A stretch of DNA of 45,828 nt from NCBI GenBank assembly GCA_016188575.1, contig JACPHN010000083.1:1-45828 (forward strand), written 5' to 3'. Below are positions 10,974 through 45,717 of this stretch, piece after piece. The notes below the pieces were generated by a model. It was not told where the DNA came from. It searched no databases and saw only the letters and a program-made list of their open reading frames with translations. Position 1 is the stretch's first letter. Every line of letters starts with the position of its first letter. The translations under genes and the position numbers were made by a program. This DNA is from Candidatus Schekmanbacteria bacterium. GTDB lineage: Bacteria; CSSED10-310; JACPHN01.

Positions 10974-11115
10974 GAGACTGCCCGCCGCCCCTCGCTCAGG
11001 CGCGCCAGCATGAGCCGCGGCCCTGAATCCTGTACCCTCTCGAAGTCGACCCGACGGCGCGCGCCTTGCAGGTGAACCGGCTGTGGACTCGAGTTTTCAG
11101 CGCGGTAGTGCCGGC

Positions 11116-12684
11116 CTATTCCGGCGTTTTGGCGCCTGCTCTTGTCTTGAGGCGAGCGAAGCGCCGGACGGCGCGGTGCCGCGGCCAGGCCGGCGGTGCG
11201 CCGCTCGCCTCGCCGCCGGCGACGGGCGTCGCCTGCAATGCCAGCAGTCGGGCCTGGACGTGGTTGGTGCAATATCGCCCATACAGCATCGAGGCGGCCT
11301 CGTACTGCTGCTCGAGGTACTCCTCCGGGGTAGTGAAATAGCCCGCGTACTCACCGGCGTAGCCGATGATCCACGGTACGGCGCCCGGGTCCGCGCGGGC
11401 CAGGGCGCGTTCGATCCGCCACGCCGCCATGACGGTTGGTTCGCCCGGAACGGTGGCGATGAGCGCAGGGCCGACGCGCCACAGATGCAGGGGCCAGCAC
11501 CGCGGCGGCGAAAGCGCGAGCAGCCGGCGCAGGGCCGCCTGCACGGGACCGAGAGCCGGGGACTTGGGAAACTGAGGGTGCGCCGGCGAGAAGTACCTGG
11601 CGGATGCGGCGGCCCCGGCAAGCCCGAGATGGTAGAGCAGCGAACGGCCGTCTGGAGCGCCGCCCAGAGCGGCGCGGCCGACACACCACGTCTCGGCGAG
11701 CTCGGTCGCCGGATCGCCATCAACCAGACGAGACGTCAGAGGAATGGACGCCAGGCGGCAATCGACGGTGTAAGCCGCGGCACCGCGCCGGGCCTCGTCC
11801 AGAACGGCGCCGACCGTGTCCGCGACCGCGCGCCCGACGCCCCTGGCAAGATCGGTTCCCTGTGTCGCACCGGGAACCAGCATGTTGACGTCGCCGGCGG
11901 TTCCGGGCATGACGGCGCAGAGGCAGCCGGCGCCGAGCCGTGCGGAGAGCATGCCGGCCGCTGCTCCGGTCCAATCCGCCGAGTAGCCGTCGACCGCGGG
12001 CCCGAGGCAGGTGTTGTGACAGGCAAATGACGCCAGGACCGCAAGGGGCGCACCTCCCTCTGCGAAGGCCGCCAGCACCTTGACTCGCGGGTCGGTAGCC
12101 CGTTGGCCGGGGGGCGTGGACGGCGGCGCTCCCGACGCCGGTCCCCCGGGAGCCTCCCAGGCAGGCGCGTCGGGATTACGGTGAAACGCTCCCGGACAGG
12201 CGTTCGTGGACACCCCCCAGAGGCGGCCGGTAGCCAGGCCGAGCGCCGCCGGGCGGGCGTTCGCCGCCGCCATCGTTACCGCCGCCGCGATCCTCGTCGC
12301 CAGCCATTCCGCCAGCCCGCGGTCGAAGCCGCGCCGCGCCTGCGTGAGCGAATCGAAGTACGAGCTCGCAAAGAAGTTTCCCGGAGCCGCGTGGGTGTGT
12401 GTCCCGGCAACCACCAGGTTACGTTCAACAAGGCCGCAGGAAGCTGAGGCCATCTCGGCTGCCCGCCTGAACAGGTAGCCCGAGGCCGAGGCCAGGTCGA
12501 CGACGCACAACGCCGCATCGTGGCCGCGGCTGTCGCGAAAATAGACCGCGCGCGCCTTGAGCGGATCGATTGTCCGCTTCGCGATTCGCCCCAGGGCGCC
12601 GTATCCCGCGAGCGGTAGGCCTGGAGGTGGCGTGATATCCACTTCCGCTGCGCCGCACCAGGAACCGCGCTCCACGGAGCTCAT
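11116..12684 (-). CDS. neutral/alkaline non-lysosomal ceramidase
   Basis: Motif 'VVAGTHTHAAPGNFF' matches the GTHTHSGP active-site region of neutral ceramidases. Start chosen at the internal Met (MSSVERG) with a GGAG Shine-Dalgarno site; the longer ORF to 12750 would overlap the neighbouring gene. Confidence 0.7.
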   Translation of the reverse strand: MSSVERGSWCGAAEVDITPPPGLPLAGYGALGRIAKRTIDPLKARAVYFRDSRGHDAALCVVDLASASGYLFRRAAEMASASCGLVERNLVVAGTHTHAAPGNFFASSYFDSLTQARRGFDRGLAEWLATRIAAAVTMAAANARPAALGLATGRLWGVSTNACPGAFHRNPDAPAWEAPGGPASGAPPSTPPGQRATDPRVKVLAAFAEGGAPLAVLASFACHNTCLGPAVDGYSADWTGAAAGMLSARLGAGCLCAVMPGTAGDVNMLVPGATQGTDLARGVGRAVADTVGAVLDEARRGAAAYTVDCRLASIPLTSRLVDGDPATELAETWCVGRAALGGAPDGRSLLYHLGLAGAAASARYFSPAHPQFPKSPALGPVQAALRRLLALSPPRCWPLHLWRVGPALIATVPGEPTVMAAWRIERALARADPGAVPWIIGYAGEYAGYFTTPEEYLEQQYEAASMLYGRYCTNHVQARLLALQATPVAGGEASGAPPAWPRHRAVRRFARLKTRAGAKTPE

Positions 12685-38587: not shown

Positions 38588-39619
38588 CTACCTGGTAGCA
38601 CGAGCCTCGCAGGGGCGCGAGGTCGCATCGCTCTCCGCCTCCCAAAACGCCCGCTGAATCACATACATCGAGGCGTTCAGCGCGACTCTCAACAGGAGCT
38701 CCTCGTCCTCTGGCAAGGCGAACCGGCGCCCGAGACAATGCACGAAAATTTCACCTGGAGCGGCGGTCCTGTCGGCAATCCGCTTTGCCAGTGCAAACAA
38801 CTCCATGGCGGCCGGTTCCTGCGCGCGTAATCGGGCCAGCGCGGCAGCGGCGTTGTGAGGGGTCGCATTCGCAGCCCCACCGGGGTAAAACAGCGGATCG
38901 CAGTGCTTGCGCGCGAGCCGCCGCATCGCGCGTCCCCACATTTCCCACCGCCGCCACCAGTCGTCGAAGTTGTGAGCGTGGTCGTGCCAGGCGCGAGCTT
39001 GCCGCGTCGCCTCCAGCACGATGCCCCGGCGGTGCATCAGCCGATACCCCAGGTCCAGGTCTTCACCTGCGGGCTCCGGAAAAGACGGGTCGAACCCGCC
39101 AACCGCGCGCACGTCCGCGGCGGGCACGCTGAGATTTCCCGTGCAAAACGCGAGGGGGCCGAGCGGTACGCCCGGGGGGACAGTCGCGGTCCCGAATATG
39201 CCGATCTCGGTGGCGATGCGATTCAGCGGGGTGGCCATCACCGCGGGCGCGAAGTCGAAGGTGCCAAGCAGCGCGGTCGGGCGGCGGAAACACGCATGGA
39301 GCTGGAGGTGTGTGGACACCACGTCGCGCGCAAGGCGCACGTCGTCATTGAGAAATAGGATCAGCGGCGCCTGGACCAGATCGAGGGCGCGATTGCGCGC
39401 CGCGGCCGGGCCGGCCTGCGCTGCCGCCGTGACGAAAACCCGCAAGCTGCCGCGGCAAGCATCCGCGACGAGCGCGGCCGGCGGGGCCGAGCCGTCGTCT
39501 GTGACGATTACCTCGAAGCTCTCGGCCGACTCCTGCCGGGACAGGTCGCCGAGGAGGTTGGCAAGCTGTAGCGGGCGATTGTGTGTCGCAATCACCACCG
39601 AGATGCGCGGAGCGATCAT
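38588..39619 (-). CDS. family 2 glycosyltransferase
   Basis: N-terminal 'ISVVIATHNRPLQLANLLGDLSRQ...FEVIVTDDGS' is the GT2 (GT-A, DxD) signature. Confidence 0.8.
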   Translation of the reverse strand: MIAPRISVVIATHNRPLQLANLLGDLSRQESAESFEVIVTDDGSAPPAALVADACRGSLRVFVTAAAQAGPAAARNRALDLVQAPLILFLNDDVRLARDVVSTHLQLHACFRRPTALLGTFDFAPAVMATPLNRIATEIGIFGTATVPPGVPLGPLAFCTGNLSVPAADVRAVGGFDPSFPEPAGEDLDLGYRLMHRRGIVLEATRQARAWHDHAHNFDDWWRRWEMWGRAMRRLARKHCDPLFYPGGAANATPHNAAAALARLRAQEPAAMELFALAKRIADRTAAPGEIFVHCLGRRFALPEDEELLLRVALNASMYVIQRAFWEAESDATSRPCEARATR

Positions 39620-40253: not shown

Positions 40254-41462
40254 CTACCCTGCGTGAGAATCGATCGCCGTCACGACTTGGCGAGCCTGCT
40301 CGACAATCGGGTTGCCGGCCGGACCGGACTGCACCAGGGCGTCGGCGGTTTCGCGAGCCTGTTGCGGGCGCCCATCGTTCCAATAGGCCAGCGCGAGGTT
40401 GAATCGCGGCGCAAATTCTCCCTGCGGGGCCAGGCGGCACGCCGACTCGAGCACCGCGACGGCCTCCTGGGCGATTCCATGATTCGTCCTCGCCTGCGCG
40501 TTGAGCAGAGTGCCCAGATCATTGTAGGGTCGCCACTCCTGAGGGGCCACGCGCATCGCATGGCGCAGATCGGTAATCGCGAGGTCCGCGCGGTTGCCCA
40601 TGTCGTAAAGCATCGAACGGAGGTGCAGGCCACGCCAGTTGTCGGGATCGCGCGCCAGCAGCTTGTCGACCGCCGCCGCGGCGGTCTCCACGTCGGTTGC
40701 CGCCAGCGCGAAGGTTGCAAGATTGACGTAGGCCGCCTCGTTGTCCGGGTCGATGCGCGTCTGCTCGCGCAACGCGGACACGACTTTCTGTAGGTCGCCT
40801 TTCTTGAGATAGACGGCCGCGAGCTTGTCGTAGACGACACCGGCGTCGGGAAAGAGCGATTTCGCCTGTAGCAGCACTTTTTCGGCACCGTCCTGACGCT
40901 CGACCTCGCTGAGGACGTCCGCGAGCGTCATGTAACCGTCGAGGTAGGCGGGGTTGATCTCGATCGTCTTCGCAAACTCCGCGACCGCCGCGGCATGGTC
41001 TCCGGATTGTTTGTATGCGATACCAAGCGCATAGTGCGGGTCAGTGGCCCGCGGGTCGAGGCGAGCCGCGTGATTCAGCTCGCGAACGGCGTCCTTGAAT
41101 CGCTTCGCCGCGGCCAGAGAGCGACCGTGTTGGTAGCGTGCTTCGTAGCTTCCGCCGTCGAGGCCGACGGCAATTGCGAAGCTCTCGAGCGCGCCATCGT
41201 GGTCGCCGGTTCCCTCGCGCAGTAGCCCGCGCAGCACGTGAGCTTCCGCGCATGTCGAGGAGAAACCGATGACCCGGTCGACGATCGCCCGCGCCTGCTC
41301 GATCTTGCGAAGCGCGATCGCGATGCGCGCCAGCGCCAGGCTGGCCTCCAGGTGTTGATGATCTGCCTGTAGCGCGTCCGAAAACGCCTTGGCAGCGAGA
41401 TCCAGGCGACCGGTGGCCAGCAGTTTCTTGCCCTCGGCGCAGTATTCGTCAGGTGATGGCAT
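40254..41462 (-). CDS. TPR-repeat protein
   Basis: Start at 'MPSPDEY' with a perfect AGGAGG Shine-Dalgarno site. Multiple TPR units are present (e.g. 'AHVLRGLLREGTGDHDGALESFAIAVGLD'). Confidence 0.7.
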   Translation of the reverse strand: MPSPDEYCAEGKKLLATGRLDLAAKAFSDALQADHQHLEASLALARIAIALRKIEQARAIVDRVIGFSSTCAEAHVLRGLLREGTGDHDGALESFAIAVGLDGGSYEARYQHGRSLAAAKRFKDAVRELNHAARLDPRATDPHYALGIAYKQSGDHAAAVAEFAKTIEINPAYLDGYMTLADVLSEVERQDGAEKVLLQAKSLFPDAGVVYDKLAAVYLKKGDLQKVVSALREQTRIDPDNEAAYVNLATFALAATDVETAAAAVDKLLARDPDNWRGLHLRSMLYDMGNRADLAITDLRHAMRVAPQEWRPYNDLGTLLNAQARTNHGIAQEAVAVLESACRLAPQGEFAPRFNLALAYWNDGRPQQARETADALVQSGPAGNPIVEQARQVVTAIDSHAG

Positions 41463-41484
41463 GCAAATGCCTCCTGATTTGAGT

Positions 41485-43050
41485 TTACCAGAGTTTGAAC
41501 GCGTCCACGACGCTGTCGATGACGCTCGCAGCGCCGGCAGCGATCGTGTCGGCCGTAGTCTCGATGGCGTTGGCCGCGGACTGCACCGCTCCCGCCACTC
41601 CTTGCGCCAGGTTGCCGGCATCGCGGACGGCGGCACCGGGGTCGAGCGCGTACTCGAGACCCTTGCCGGCGAGGTCCAGCGCCCCGCCGATAGCGGCGTT
41701 GGCAATGGCCTTGACGTCCACCTCGACACCCCAGCCCGCGCCGAACCCGTAGCCTACGGCGGCGCCACCACCGAAACCGAACGAAATTTTGCCGTCGTCG
41801 TAGCCGAGGTGCACGCCGCCTTCCGCGCCGGCACCGGCCCAGGCACCCGCGTGTCCCGACAAGGTGACGAAGTCGCCGATACCTACCTGCCCTTCGGCCT
41901 CCGCTTTCACACCGGCAAACGCGGTTCCATAGATATCCGCCCCGGCGCGCGGTGGGTTGATCGTGGCGTTGACCTCGGCGTGGCCTTCGGCGAGCGCCGA
42001 AGCCTCGACGCGCACCTTGCCGCTGCCGTTGATATCGAGGCGCTCGCCGCCGATTTCGACGCCTGCCGTGCGAAAGTCAGCTCCCGCCTCCGCGGACGCG
42101 GAGACACCCACGCGCGCGTCTGCTCGCGCACGCAGCCCCGTGGCGTCCAGCGTGGCGCTTCCGGTCGCGTCGCCGAACGCTTCAACACCGGCATTCGCGT
42201 AGTAGTTGGCGGTGCCCAGCGCATTCTCCAACCGCCCCTGGGTGGATACCATCGCCGCCGCACTGGCGCCGACTTGCCCCTGAGCGTTGAGCCCGGTTGC
42301 ATCCAGACTGACGCTGCCCTCGCCGCCATAGCGCAGGTCGGCGCGCGCCTCGGACGTGTTCGTGGCTGTTCCGAGAACCGTTTCCAGACGACTGTCCGAG
42401 CGCGCCGAGGCGCCGAGCGTCCCCTGGAACCGCCCCTCTGCCTCTGCTCCCGCAATGCCGATCTTGGCCCGGCCGTCGGCCTCGAAGTCGCCGCCCACGC
42501 GCGTCTGGGTCTGGTTGTCGAAGGTGCCGAAGTCGCCAATCTGGCGATGAAGCTGATACGCGCGGTAGTCTCCAAAATGGCTCTGCGTGGACCCACGCGT
42601 CTCGGCCCGCAGCCCTGTCTGTTGCTCGAGTGCCTCGAGACTCTTGTCGACGCCCCCGAGGACACCCTGGATTGCCTCCGTGGGCGCGCCGAGGATCATG
42701 TTCTGAACCGTATCCACGGGATTGTCGCGCAATCCCTGAGCGATCGCTGCCAGATCCTGCTGGAGCGCCGCCGGATCGAATTCGGCGTTGCCGAGAAACG
42801 CCGAAAAGTCCGGTGGCTGGCCGGAAGCGACCGAGGTCAGTAGATGCTGAATACCACCAAACGGGTGGCTGCCTAGATCCTGAAAAAGATCGATGATGGC
42901 GGACCCGGCGCGCGTCGTTGCGGCGCGCATTTCGCGGTCCTTGTCGGTCGCCGGGTCGTGTATTTGCGCTTCGCGGGTGCCCTGCGCCTGCCACGCCTGA
43001 GCGTACTGCTGCGAGGTGTGGTCACCCCACGAAATCGTTCCGTTGGACAT
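41485..43050 (-). CDS. hypothetical Gly/Ala-rich repeat protein ending in an aromatic residue (...DAFKLW)
   Basis: Start at 'MSNGTISWGD' with a GGAGG Shine-Dalgarno site. The central region has ~40-aa degenerate repeats ('SVSLDATGLNAQGQVGASAAA' / 'SATLDATGLRARADARVGVSASAEAG') with an alternating G/A/V pattern. No signal peptide. Confidence 0.5.
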   Translation of the reverse strand: MSNGTISWGDHTSQQYAQAWQAQGTREAQIHDPATDKDREMRAATTRAGSAIIDLFQDLGSHPFGGIQHLLTSVASGQPPDFSAFLGNAEFDPAALQQDLAAIAQGLRDNPVDTVQNMILGAPTEAIQGVLGGVDKSLEALEQQTGLRAETRGSTQSHFGDYRAYQLHRQIGDFGTFDNQTQTRVGGDFEADGRAKIGIAGAEAEGRFQGTLGASARSDSRLETVLGTATNTSEARADLRYGGEGSVSLDATGLNAQGQVGASAAAMVSTQGRLENALGTANYYANAGVEAFGDATGSATLDATGLRARADARVGVSASAEAGADFRTAGVEIGGERLDINGSGKVRVEASALAEGHAEVNATINPPRAGADIYGTAFAGVKAEAEGQVGIGDFVTLSGHAGAWAGAGAEGGVHLGYDDGKISFGFGGGAAVGYGFGAGWGVEVDVKAIANAAIGGALDLAGKGLEYALDPGAAVRDAGNLAQGVAGAVQSAANAIETTADTIAAGAASVIDSVVDAFKLW

Positions 43051-43317
43051 CTCTACCTCCACCCAGATCGAACGGTGTCGGGTTTCTTCGGTGCTCGTAA
43101 CAATCGTATAGGGGATTGTTGCCCATGGCAAGGTTATCGCGTGTTACCGCGAAATCGTTTCTCAACGGCTCACCGGGTGCTTGACAGGGCCGGCTCGGGC
43201 TGCGGTGTAGTCGAACCAGCGCTGCTGCGATCGATGAAACGCCAAGGTGGCAGCACCGGCCTGAATCCACCGCCTGGTCGAGTGCAGGCTGCGCGGAATG
43301 CGCATCACGAAGACCCT

Positions 43318-44537: not shown

Positions 44538-44682
44538 TTCGGGCCGATCAGCCGAAATCGGCACGACAAGCGCATCGCGTGCATTGACCGCGCGGCTGGG
44601 CGACCTTACATTAAGCTCAGCGGAAGCGGTCAGCGGCTATCCTGCAGCATTCTAGTGATTGACACGCGAAAGGAGCGTGCTG

Positions 44683-45717
44683 ATGATCCAGAGCGAGGTG
44701 ACCTACCGAGAAATGAACCGCAGCAGGCATGTCGAGGAAGCGGTTGAACGCGCTCGGGACCGGCTCGAGAGGTTGCTCCCTCACGTCGTGAAGTCGGAGA
44801 TCGCGACGTTGCGCACGATGGTGCAGCGATGTTCGCGTGGCATTTTCGAAGTGTCCGTGAGCCTGCGCCTGCCTCGACGATCGTTCTACGTTCATGAAGA
44901 GGGCCACGACGTGGACGGGCTCGTCAACGAAGTCCTGAACGAGCTCTTGCAGCGTGCCCGCAAATTCAAGAGCCGCCGCGCCGAGCGCACGGGGGTTGCT
45001 GTCGACCAGGAGCTCCGCAGCGAGAACACGGAGAGCAACGTCGGGCGCCGGACGTCGCACGATACCGGGGAACTGTGGATCGACTCGCAGGACCGCAGCG
45101 AGATCAATCAACTCATCGAGGATGCGATTGGGCGACTGAAGGAGTTTATCGAGCGGCGCCTGATCCATCACGGGCTGATCCTGGAACGCCTCGGGGAAGG
45201 ACGCGCCATGGCTATCCTCGACGAGGCCGTCGCTACCGCCCTGGAGACGCTCCCCGCCAAGCCGGTCCACCTGCCGGTGCGGGCGTGGCTCTACAAGAAA
45301 GCCTCCGACGCCTGCGATGCGTGGGTGGCGCGCACCGCGGACGCCAGCGCGGACAGCGTTTCGGTCGACGAGCGGGCGACGTTCGCTTCCATCATCGAGC
45401 GCATGCAGGATGCCGGCACCGAGATGCTCGACTTCTGGCAGCCCGACGAAGAGCCGCATGCTGAAGACGTCTTGGGTGATCCGAACAGCACCAATCCTGA
45501 GGAGCTCGTTGGCGGGCTGGAGCTGGAGCGGCTGCTGATGAGCAAGCTCGAGCATCTTCCCGAGCTGGAACGTGACGTCGTCGTCCTGGCGATGTTGGAA
45601 GACCTCCCCATTGATGAGATCGCCGAGCTGCGGGGTTTGACCCCCGACGAGGTCACCGGGCTGCTGTCGCGCGCGAAGGACCAGCTCCGGACGTATTTTC
45701 GCGAAGTCACCGCGTGA
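44683..45717 (+). CDS. fusion protein: N-terminal ribosome-hibernation-factor (HPF/RaiA, S30AE)-like domain + C-terminal sigma-70 region-4 (ECF-type) domain
   Basis: AGGAG Shine-Dalgarno site 7 nt upstream. The N-terminus 'MIQSEVTYREMNRSRHVEEAVERARDRLERLL...FEVSVSLRL...VHEEGHDVDGLVNEVLNELLQRARKFKSRR' follows the HPF pattern (H.ve.s.alre....K..kl...........v.L......a......DmYaAID...dkL.rQl.K.K.K). The C-terminus 'LPELERDVVVLAMLEDLPIDEIAELRGLTPDEVTGLLSRAKDQLR' is a classic region-4 HTH. Confidence 0.55.
   Translation: MIQSEVTYREMNRSRHVEEAVERARDRLERLLPHVVKSEIATLRTMVQRCSRGIFEVSVSLRLPRRSFYVHEEGHDVDGLVNEVLNELLQRARKFKSRRAERTGVAVDQELRSENTESNVGRRTSHDTGELWIDSQDRSEINQLIEDAIGRLKEFIERRLIHHGLILERLGEGRAMAILDEAVATALETLPAKPVHLPVRAWLYKKASDACDAWVARTADASADSVSVDERATFASIIERMQDAGTEMLDFWQPDEEPHAEDVLGDPNSTNPEELVGGLELERLLMSKLEHLPELERDVVVLAMLEDLPIDEIAELRGLTPDEVTGLLSRAKDQLRTYFREVTA

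Follow-up and report, generated by a model that had tools for sequence, protein, structure and literature searches.

Chimeric isoforms of the ribosome hibernation factor HPF that are fused to a 'SigE' domain were listed in a genomic survey of November 2025, according to which they are scattered by horizontal transfer, adjoin Balon, can be plasmid-borne (e.g., E. coli pEc78), and coexist with canonical HPF; the survey reports no biochemistry for them (bioRxiv 10.1101/2025.11.04.686544). RaiA, Hsp20, and alternative sigma factors are encoded in Balon operons (PMC10901736), and baeRF-1 genes adjoin HPF genes, with no sigma fusion mentioned in that context (Burroughs and Aravind 2019, PMC6514570). 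N-terminal extensions are likewise known from sigma factors with extracytoplasmic function (ECF), although the text of the ECF reclassification paper mentions none of the HPF type (PMC7826278). We analyzed a gene that combines both elements in a 45,828-nucleotide stretch of DNA from Candidatus Schekmanbacteria bacterium (contig JACPHN010000083.1; this whole stretch is called the window below). The gene occupies positions 44683 to 45717 of the plus strand and encodes a 344-residue protein in which an HPF/RaiA-like head is joined to an ECF sigma-like module.

A preliminary description of the window had regarded this fusion as unusual. This view needs tempering: the architecture belongs to a widespread family that was already noted in the 2025 preprint as HPF-'SigE' chimeras, to which the window protein adds another, distantly related member. 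Like these chimeras, it possesses an HPF head and a SigE/ECF-like C-terminal part and lacks the dimerization domain of long HPF, and its family shows the same scattering over phyla, plasmid copies, and frequent adjacency to Balon. Its identity with the proteobacterial plasmid copies is low, at about 25%, and no stress island is visible around its gene. The present analysis adds a sigma2-like domain, an acidic linker motif, a depletion of charge in the DNA-contact helices, a profile-level link to orf11 of the tLST (transmissible locus of stress tolerance), and lineage-specific partners (zinc-binding anti-sigma [ZAS] proteins, Trx2, DUF6335, ClpB, and Balon).

The gene is a single uninterrupted open reading frame (ORF) from the ATG at 44683 to the stop codon at 45715-45717, with no internal stop codon, and the product is identical to the NCBI entry 'MAG: hypothetical protein HYV63_13430 [Candidatus Schekmanbacteria bacterium]', where MAG denotes a metagenome-assembled genome; that entry is encoded on a contig of 52,967 bp. 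The base composition at the three codon positions (GC1 0.70, GC2 0.40, and GC3 0.81, with a window GC of 0.66) has a pattern characteristic of genuine coding sequence. An in-frame TTG is located eight codons 5' of the ATG; we regard 44683 as the likely start because a Shine-Dalgarno sequence, AGGAG, read directly at 44671-44675 on the plus strand, lies 7 nucleotides upstream of it and the family alignments begin at this Met. The continuous 344-residue ORF with a good Shine-Dalgarno site proposed in the preliminary description was thus found as described.

We are confident that residues 1-103 (44683-44991) have the HPF/RaiA fold, on the combined evidence of Pfam, the family profile, AlphaFold2, and Foldseek. 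The Pfam model Ribosomal_S30AE (PF02482) scored 23.0 bits with the full-length query, just below the cut-off of 23.7, and 25.7 bits with residues 1-110 alone, aligning model positions 2 to 87/88. The NCBIfam model TIGR00741 (HPF/YfiA) was matched over its full length (E value of 2.6e-4) at 21.4 bits, well below its equivalog cut-off of 40.9. An AlphaFold2 model built with an 83-sequence alignment (mean predicted local distance difference test [pLDDT] score of 85) displayed a beta-alpha-beta-beta-beta-alpha head at residues 2-103 with a pLDDT of about 97, consisting of strands 2-9, 41-49, 55-62, and 67-74 and helices 15-31 and 77-103. In a Foldseek search of the PDB, this head matched ribosome-bound HPF/RaiA (8uu7_w; target template modeling [TM] score of 0.82 and root mean square deviation [rmsd] of 2.3 Å), and together with the further matches 2ywq, 4hei, and 4v4g the target TM scores ranged from 0.79 to 0.82 and the rmsd from 2.2 to 2.6 Å. 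Besides, a head-only family profile retrieved solely HPF/RaiA chains from the PDB, over the full domain and with E values of 2.4e-14 to 1e-6, and it keeps the signature L-E-R-Q-x-K-K-x-K of the second HPF helix. The HPF/RaiA-like N terminus of the preliminary description is hereby confirmed.

The head is followed by a flexible linker (residues 104-134, 44992-45084), as delimited by the model confidence and by family column counts; the pLDDT fell below 50 at residues 115-130, a disordered segment. The family consensus after the second helix is strongly basic (K-x-K-x-x-L-R-x4-W-x-R-x-x-R-R), and the window protein diverges from it, with E117 and N119 in place of the family Trp and Arg. In its N-terminal fold, its sequence signature, and the flexible linker that comes next, the protein resembles long HPF, RaiA, and short HPF. 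It differs from long HPF in that a sigma-like module of about 210 residues replaces the C-terminal dimerization domain, for which no Pfam match was obtained in the 344-residue query at E values up to 10, and in scoring below the TIGR00741 cut-off. So far as is known, every characterized HPF-domain protein binds ribosomes (long HPF, RaiA, PSRP1, RafH, and archaeal Hib), and a role elsewhere is not known to have been demonstrated for any domain of this fold. Since the HPF signature motif is retained in the family and characterized HPF-domain proteins bind ribosomes, docking of the head on idle ribosomes is probable. The combination of an HPF head with a non-HPF regulatory module has a precedent in a family of hibernation factors bearing a CBS nucleotide sensor, which was reportedly identified by cryo-electron microscopy of stressed cells; it differs from the present family in the module and in the domain of life.

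The C terminus contains sigma-70 region 4, as had been described: Sigma70_r4_2 (PF08281) matched residues 284-335 with 41 bits (cut-off, 25.7), and Sigma70_r4 (PF04545) scored 26.3 bits (cut-off, 24.1). The preliminary description was right in combining region 4 with HPF but understated the architecture. Judged from profiles and the structure model, the C-terminal two thirds appears to be a complete ECF-type sigma2-linker-sigma4 module, with a divergent sigma2. The generic ECF model TIGR02937 matched residues 181-338 with 45.8 bits (cut-off, 42.9). AlphaFold2 predicted a three-helix sigma2-like domain (helices 135-162, 172-188, and 199-224), a linker of lower confidence, and a sigma4 of four helices (272-343) with a pLDDT above 90. 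The Foldseek matches of this part in the PDB were ECF sigma factors, namely, SigW in complex with RsiW (target TM score of 0.67) as well as SigH, SigE, and SigL. The whole-family profile retrieved AlgU/RpoE (E value of 2e-19, 73 bits) in an alignment that runs from region 2.2 onward and includes region 2.3, aligned to 7qh5 from profile position 124 (region 2.1), and matched PhyR-type chains with 38 to 48 bits, in the sigma4 part only.

The sigma2-like domain (residues 135-224, 45085-45354), assigned by TIGR02937, profile alignments, and AlphaFold2/Foldseek, retains two motifs, a V-L-D-E like that of region 2.2 and W-L-Y. A sigma region 2 in the middle section, which the preliminary description had raised for examination, is therefore partly supported: a divergent sigma2-like domain is recognized by TIGR02937 and by structure comparison, but Sigma70_r2 (PF04542) gave no match in the 344-residue query at E values up to 10. 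We consider the middle section sigma2-like despite this silence because TIGR02937 exceeds its cut-off over residues 181-338. Next comes an acidic motif between sigma2 and sigma4 (residues 251-266, FWQPDEEPHAEDVLGD, 45433-45480), with the consensus F-x-Q-P-D-E-x-L-x-x-E-D-x-x-P-D. Few parts of the family alignment are as well conserved (P254 in 77/82 sequences, E261 in 71/83, and D262 in 67/82), and the motif is invariant in an 8-sequence alignment; AlgU carries a related, aligned motif, E-F-F-E-G-D. The sigma4 domain with its helix-turn-helix (residues 272-343, 45496-45711) is defined by Pfam, conservation, and AlphaFold2, and its scaffold is conserved (R297 in 82/83 and L302 in 81/83 members). 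In the region 2.2-like helix, D180 stands at the canonical Gln position in 75/83 members. Compared with the ECF (group IV) RpoE/AlgU sigma factors, the module has the same sigma2-linker-sigma4 order without sigma3 or sigma1.1, and AlgU, RpoE, SigW, and SigH are its best matches among solved structures. It is unlike them in the N-terminal HPF domain, in a sigma2 beyond the reach of Pfam Sigma70_r2, and in the loss of most basic residues from region 2.4 and from the sigma4 recognition helix.

When 1.84 billion cluster representatives (50% identity) were searched exhaustively with phmmer, 288 proteins were found at an E value of 0.001 or better, with matches that aligned residues 5-340 of the query to proteins of 310 to 390 residues. 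Among the best 150 of these 288 matches, 83 are 295 to 420 residues long and collinear from head to sigma4; these 83 representatives are at most 50% identical to each other. Pfam recognized Ribosomal_S30AE in 74 of them, Sigma70_r4_2 in 79, PhyR_sigma-like in 57, and Sigma70_r2 in 4, and the head half of the whole-family profile retrieved solved HPF/RaiA chains from the PDB (E values of 8e-15 to 1e-9). Conserved columns were found in every part, that is, the HPF core, the basic stretch after the second helix, the sigma2-like domain, the linker motif, and sigma4; conserved sigma-like motifs include F-x-R-R-E-L ... V-V-D-E (region 2.1/2.2-like), W-L-x-x-L-A, and L-P-x3-R-x-A-F-x-L-x3-E-G (sigma4). 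On this pattern of conservation, both halves are under selection across the 83 representatives.

A scan of one genome per GTDB species with an 8-sequence alignment as the query yielded 37 loci from Acidobacteriota (Blastocatellia, Terriglobia, and Bryobacterales), Nitrospirota, Nitrospinota, Methylomirabilota, Gammaproteobacteria (Sedimenticola, Thiohalobacter, and Acidihalobacter), Myxococcota, Calditrichota, Sumerlaeota, Binatia, and others. A metagenome scan confirmed 171 further relatives, of which 80 loci were kept. The architecture is common to more than 110 genomic and metagenomic loci from eight or more phyla, so the conservation of the fusion in related genomes that the preliminary description had called for is well documented, and its split-gene alternative falls. 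Full-length relatives were also detected on plasmids by a tblastn search of PLSDB with the window protein (coverage of 94 to 97%, about 25% identity), in Brucella anthropi ATCC 49188, Paracoccus yeei, Roseomonas, Shinella, Agrobacterium, Sphingomonas, Paraburkholderia, and Methylorubrum extorquens AM1. Relatives are publicly annotated as 'sigma-70 family', 'sigma24 family', 'FliA', 'sigma-28', 'sigma factor-like HTH protein', or 'hypothetical'. Within the family, the window protein is a somewhat divergent member from an uncultured lineage.

Some plasmid relatives are part of a known stress island. The gene order in Brucella and Roseomonas is three Hsp20 genes, MarR, FtsH, a ClpB/ClpK-like AAA+ protein, the HPF-sigma gene, and HdeD, followed in Brucella by YfdX1/2, and this locus is an island of the tLST/LHR (locus of heat resistance) type. 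With the Brucella protein as the query, 288 plasmid records were matched, including 123 from Klebsiella, 73 from Enterobacter, 25 from Acinetobacter, and 17 from Escherichia, and the matching gene encodes a 381-residue 'hypothetical protein' between hdeD-GI and trx-GI. This slot is orf11 in the published tLST1 gene order, and orf11 is always within the 'oxidative stress module' of the tLST (PMC8290217). An hhalign comparison of the family alignment, with the query as the first row, and E. coli Orf11 gave a probability of 99.9% and an E value of 1.6e-35 over 340 columns, head included. On this profile evidence, orf11 of the tLST/LHR belongs to the HPF-sigma family. Orf11 resembles the window protein in its full-length profile homology and in the linker motif (retained as F-Y-Q-P-D-D), and its gene is followed directly by that of a Trx2-type thioredoxin, as are the family genes of 10 environmental loci. 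In contrast, Orf11 is more degenerate, since Pfam alone found no S30AE and only a weak sigma4 (18 bits) and the recognition-helix charge is -2, and the window gene lies outside such an island. The gene is present in 152 of 5,426 complete E. coli genomes. E. coli Orf11 has the accession WP_191111784.1, and the family gene of Brucella anthropi is OANT_RS23040. In the tLST loci of E. coli and Enterobacter (L041 and L042, both 11001-12146), the orf11 stop codon overlaps the trx-GI start by 11 nucleotides, which suggests translational coupling.

The gene neighborhood of the family was examined by clustering the neighboring ORFs of 112 loci and identifying cluster representatives by Pfam. The commonest conserved neighbor was DUF6335, an acidic protein of about 150 residues encoded directly upstream in 23 loci, including three from Blastocatellia MAGs (L003, L004, and L007) and L045, with its gene ending about 3 nucleotides inside the HPF-sigma start. 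Hsp20 was found nearby in 14 loci, a Balon-type baeRF_family10 protein nearby in 10 to 12, ClpB directly upstream in 10, the Trx2-type thioredoxin directly downstream in 10, and MerR_2, Usp, and BON nearby in 9 each. The baeRF10 neighbor is a full-length homologue of the solved Balon protein MSMEG_1130 (E value of 4e-10), and operons with HPF-sigma, ZAS, and Balon genes were found in Nitrospirota and Methylomirabilota (L002, L006, L011, and L018). These neighborhoods of family relatives agree with the published Balon/baeRF context. At least one such neighbor was seen in 63 of the 112 loci, a lower bound given the shortness of many contigs and the phylogenetic dependence among the loci; a stress-island or Balon neighborhood occurs often in the family but does not define it. 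RpoH (sigma32)-type promoters, CTTGAA-N13/14-CC(C/T)CAT, were found 54 to 86 nucleotides upstream only in three gammaproteobacterial loci (L010, L013, and L014); the site in L014 reads CTTGAAA-N13-CCCCAT, against a rough estimate of 0.04 such matches by chance.

Immediately downstream of the HPF-sigma gene, a small ORF for a zf-HC2 (ZAS-type anti-sigma-like) protein was observed in 9 of 105 loci (e.g., 7063-7299 in L002, 7000-7227 in L006, 7018-7284 in L011, and 3542-3793 in L018). Its product carries a second, C-terminal motif, F-(F/G)-T-x3-V-(E/D)-V-P-x2-(L/V)-R, and the same F-(F/G)-T motif forms the C-terminal tail of four family members (P0006, P0073, P0082, and P0086). A motif that is split in some lineages and fused in others suggests a direct interaction between the zf-HC2 and sigma-like proteins. 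A zf-HC2 ORF or thioredoxin gene downstream of HPF-sigma genes in some lineages is reminiscent of SigR-RsrA-Trx, a system of an ECF sigma factor, a zinc-binding anti-sigma factor, and thioredoxin.

What might such a protein do? The preliminary description had offered two readings, one in which the protein connects the hibernation of ribosomes with transcription and one in which the HPF fold has been taken over to modulate sigma, and both are plausible. For the HPF-sigma proteins we can only infer ribosome binding, RNA polymerase or anti-sigma binding, and regulatory coupling. Our tentative preference, which we hold to fall short of probable, is that docking of the head on ribosomes gates the availability of the sigma-like module. 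An HPF/RaiA head is predicted to be tethered to an ECF-derived module through some 30 residues of flexible linker, basic in most members; the head would bind the decoding-centre region of vacant or hibernating 30S or 70S ribosomes, as other HPF-domain proteins do, and this binding would control whether the module can reach its partner. The partner may be the RNA polymerase core or, where a lineage encodes one, the adjacent zf-HC2 anti-sigma-like protein. In this way the pool of idle ribosomes might be coupled to a transcription response to stress or dormancy. The conserved columns in both halves, the HPF head, the ECF-like half, and the stress or hibernation context of many relatives speak for gating by ribosome docking.

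Several results weigh against it. No more than about half of the relatives show the stress context, and the window locus gives no demonstrable case of it: the genes upstream in the window encode a PD40 beta-propeller protein, a Gly/Ala-rich ORF, a TPR protein, a GT2 glycosyltransferase, and a vault-like protein, none of them stress genes, and local hidden Markov models and Pfam revealed no Balon, Hsp20, ZAS, ClpK/ClpB, or second HPF gene in the 45.8-kb window, in which gene context means the upstream side, as the window stops 111 bp past the HPF-sigma stop codon. The infrequent recognition of Sigma70_r2 in the family, mentioned above, is a further difficulty. Furthermore, the DNA-contact helices are less basic than in nine canonical ECF sigma factors aligned to the family model (seven database proteins with Pfam regions 2 and 4, plus RpoE and SigW, whose sequences were checked in part against PDB alignments). 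The 18-residue recognition-helix segment of the window protein, VTGLLSRAKDQLRTYFRE, has a net charge of +2, and the family mean is +1.06 (standard deviation, 1.67), against +3 to +6 in the canonical proteins; the Brucella protein has -1. The region 2.3/2.4 helix after W-L-Y has a net charge of 0 in the window protein and +0.43 in the family, against +3 to +5, and its canonical Asn is replaced in the family. Net charge being a proxy and not a binding assay, this depletion lowers the claim of a true promoter-specific sigma factor but stops short of refuting it. An unbiased search for a shared bipartite (5-mer/4-mer) ECF-type autoregulatory promoter upstream of 27 family genes found none above shuffled controls. 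Finally, when 13 genes were deleted one at a time in E. coli MG1655 lacZ::LHR, heat or chlorine resistance was affected only by the loss of sHsp20, clpK, sHspGI, pscA, pscB, hdeD, and kefB; orf11 was not among these seven, and its deletion left lipid oxidation unchanged (PMC8407380). Since the DNA-contact helices are less basic and Sigma70_r2 is recognized so rarely, we keep all functional readings modest; the sigma-like half retains the ECF scaffold and may be either a true sigma factor or a sigma-derived interaction module.

The alternative that survives best, possible although we lean away from it, is a pure hibernation factor in which a sigma-derived module without any transcription role has replaced the dimerization domain of long HPF and serves, for example, as a structural, dimerizing, or protective appendage on the 30S subunit. 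This is essentially the reading of chimeric HPF isoforms in the 2025 preprint (bioRxiv 10.1101/2025.11.04.686544). It agrees with the retained HPF signature, with a linker whose length and basic character are close to those of long-HPF linkers, with the absence of the long-HPF C-terminal domain, with DNA-contact helices that have lost basic residues and a Sigma70_r2 that is rarely recognized, and with the frequent position beside Balon. However, the sigma-like half is conserved as well as the head, including the region 2.2-like helix, the sigma4 scaffold, and the linker motif, parts that contact RNA polymerase in real ECF sigma factors, and a zf-HC2 partner directly downstream in some lineages is hard to explain for a structural appendage.

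We are more doubtful of a narrower form of the gating proposal, in which a working sigma factor, or a mimic that binds RNA polymerase, is parked on vacant or hibernating ribosomes. The ribosome would then act as the anti-sigma factor, and release, upon saturation of the hibernation sites or at resuscitation, would hand the module to RNA polymerase.

Unlikely, in our estimate, is a conventional ECF alternative sigma factor whose HPF fold is a cis-acting autoinhibitory or sensory extension, comparable to the C-terminal ones of ECF41/42, and makes no contact with the ribosome. The TIGR02937 score above the cut-off, bona fide ECF sigma factors as the best solved structures, the annotation of relatives as sigma factors, the zf-HC2 partners, and the existence of N-terminally extended ECF sigma factors (PMC7826278) would all fit such a protein. 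Nevertheless, the charge-depleted sigma2 and sigma4 DNA-contact helices and the failure to find a conserved autoregulatory ECF promoter do not, and the head keeps the canonical HPF signature instead of drifting as a mere scaffold might. Nor is a function off the ribosome known to have been demonstrated for any HPF-fold domain.

It is very unlikely that the protein is a PhyR-like mimic, i.e., an anti-anti-sigma factor that titrates a ZAS anti-sigma factor and thereby frees a separate genuine ECF sigma factor, with the HPF head as the switch. PhyR does resemble the family in placing a degenerate ECF-like module on a different signaling domain; 57/83 members match PhyR_sigma-like, the DNA-binding surfaces are degenerate, and a small zf-HC2 ORF lies downstream in some loci. 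The differences are larger: the domain order is reversed, no receiver or NepR is present, and the family profile scores 73 bits with ECF sigma factors against 38 to 48 with PhyR chains. PhyR_sigma2 (PF22029) was matched by 0/83 members at an E value of 0.01 or better, the ZAS neighbor is found in only about 9% of the loci, and a genuine ECF sigma gene as its pair did not appear in the vicinity. The window protein itself scored 15.4 bits with PhyR_sigma-like (cut-off, 27) and gave no Response_reg match. Membership in the PhyR type was rejected for the missing receiver domain and for a similarity to PhyR below that to true ECF sigma factors. Finally, an artifact in which hpf and ECF sigma genes were joined by a frameshift or misassembly, conceivable for a source that is a MAG, is excluded because the fusion recurs end to end in the 83 representatives and in the 37 GTDB and 80 metagenome loci, and it is countered as well by complete plasmids and chromosomes of cultured bacteria, including the 152 complete E. 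coli genomes.

If the head does sit on ribosomes and the tail on RNA polymerase or an anti-sigma factor, the protein would directly link the state of the translation apparatus to stress transcription, a mechanism of which none is currently established. The parked-sigma variant, if true, would make this a physical link between ribosome hibernation and transcription initiation within one polypeptide. [quoted passage not shown] Placing the window protein and tLST Orf11 in one domain-defined family leads to testable hypotheses in tractable hosts, such as E. coli MG1655 lacZ::LHR, Brucella anthropi ATCC 49188, and Methylorubrum extorquens AM1.

As for signals near the gene, a scan for consensus promoters gave 2 sites against 0.1 expected in shuffles. 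One, located about 70 nucleotides 5' of the start codon, resembles a sigma70-type promoter (TTGACC-N17-TACATT, 44584-44612, plus strand) on the strength of its pattern alone. The other, at 44659-44687, overlaps that codon and probably does not drive the HPF-sigma gene. The leader at 44613-44700, in which an RNA thermometer or riboswitch was sought, folded no better than shuffles (z of 0.16) and had no Rfam match.

Downstream of the HPF-sigma stop codon, an open frame on the plus strand (45729-45828, possible GTG at 45729, VNTQPGRGAPAPDSLSSRLTETGHYLAGHLRRA...) runs off the window end; perhaps a partner gene begins here, for instance one for an anti-sigma factor. An exact 45-mer taken from the end of the window had no match in the metagenome collection. 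A 399-residue ORF antisense to the HPF-sigma gene (44617-45816, minus strand) is almost certainly a shadow ORF of high-GC sequence, because the plus-strand frame has a GC3 of 0.81 and conserved homologues. Farther upstream, the minus strand carries the 548-residue Gly/Ala-rich ORF (41485-43131), which has no Pfam match, and, on the same strand near it, the genes for the TPR protein (40254-41729) and the GT2 glycosyltransferase (38588-39619). The 840-residue ORF at 34192-36714 on the plus strand matched Pfam MVP_shoulder (6.9e-30, residues 527-637) and Vault_3 (7.6e-9), and by these domain matches it encodes a bacterial protein resembling the major vault protein.

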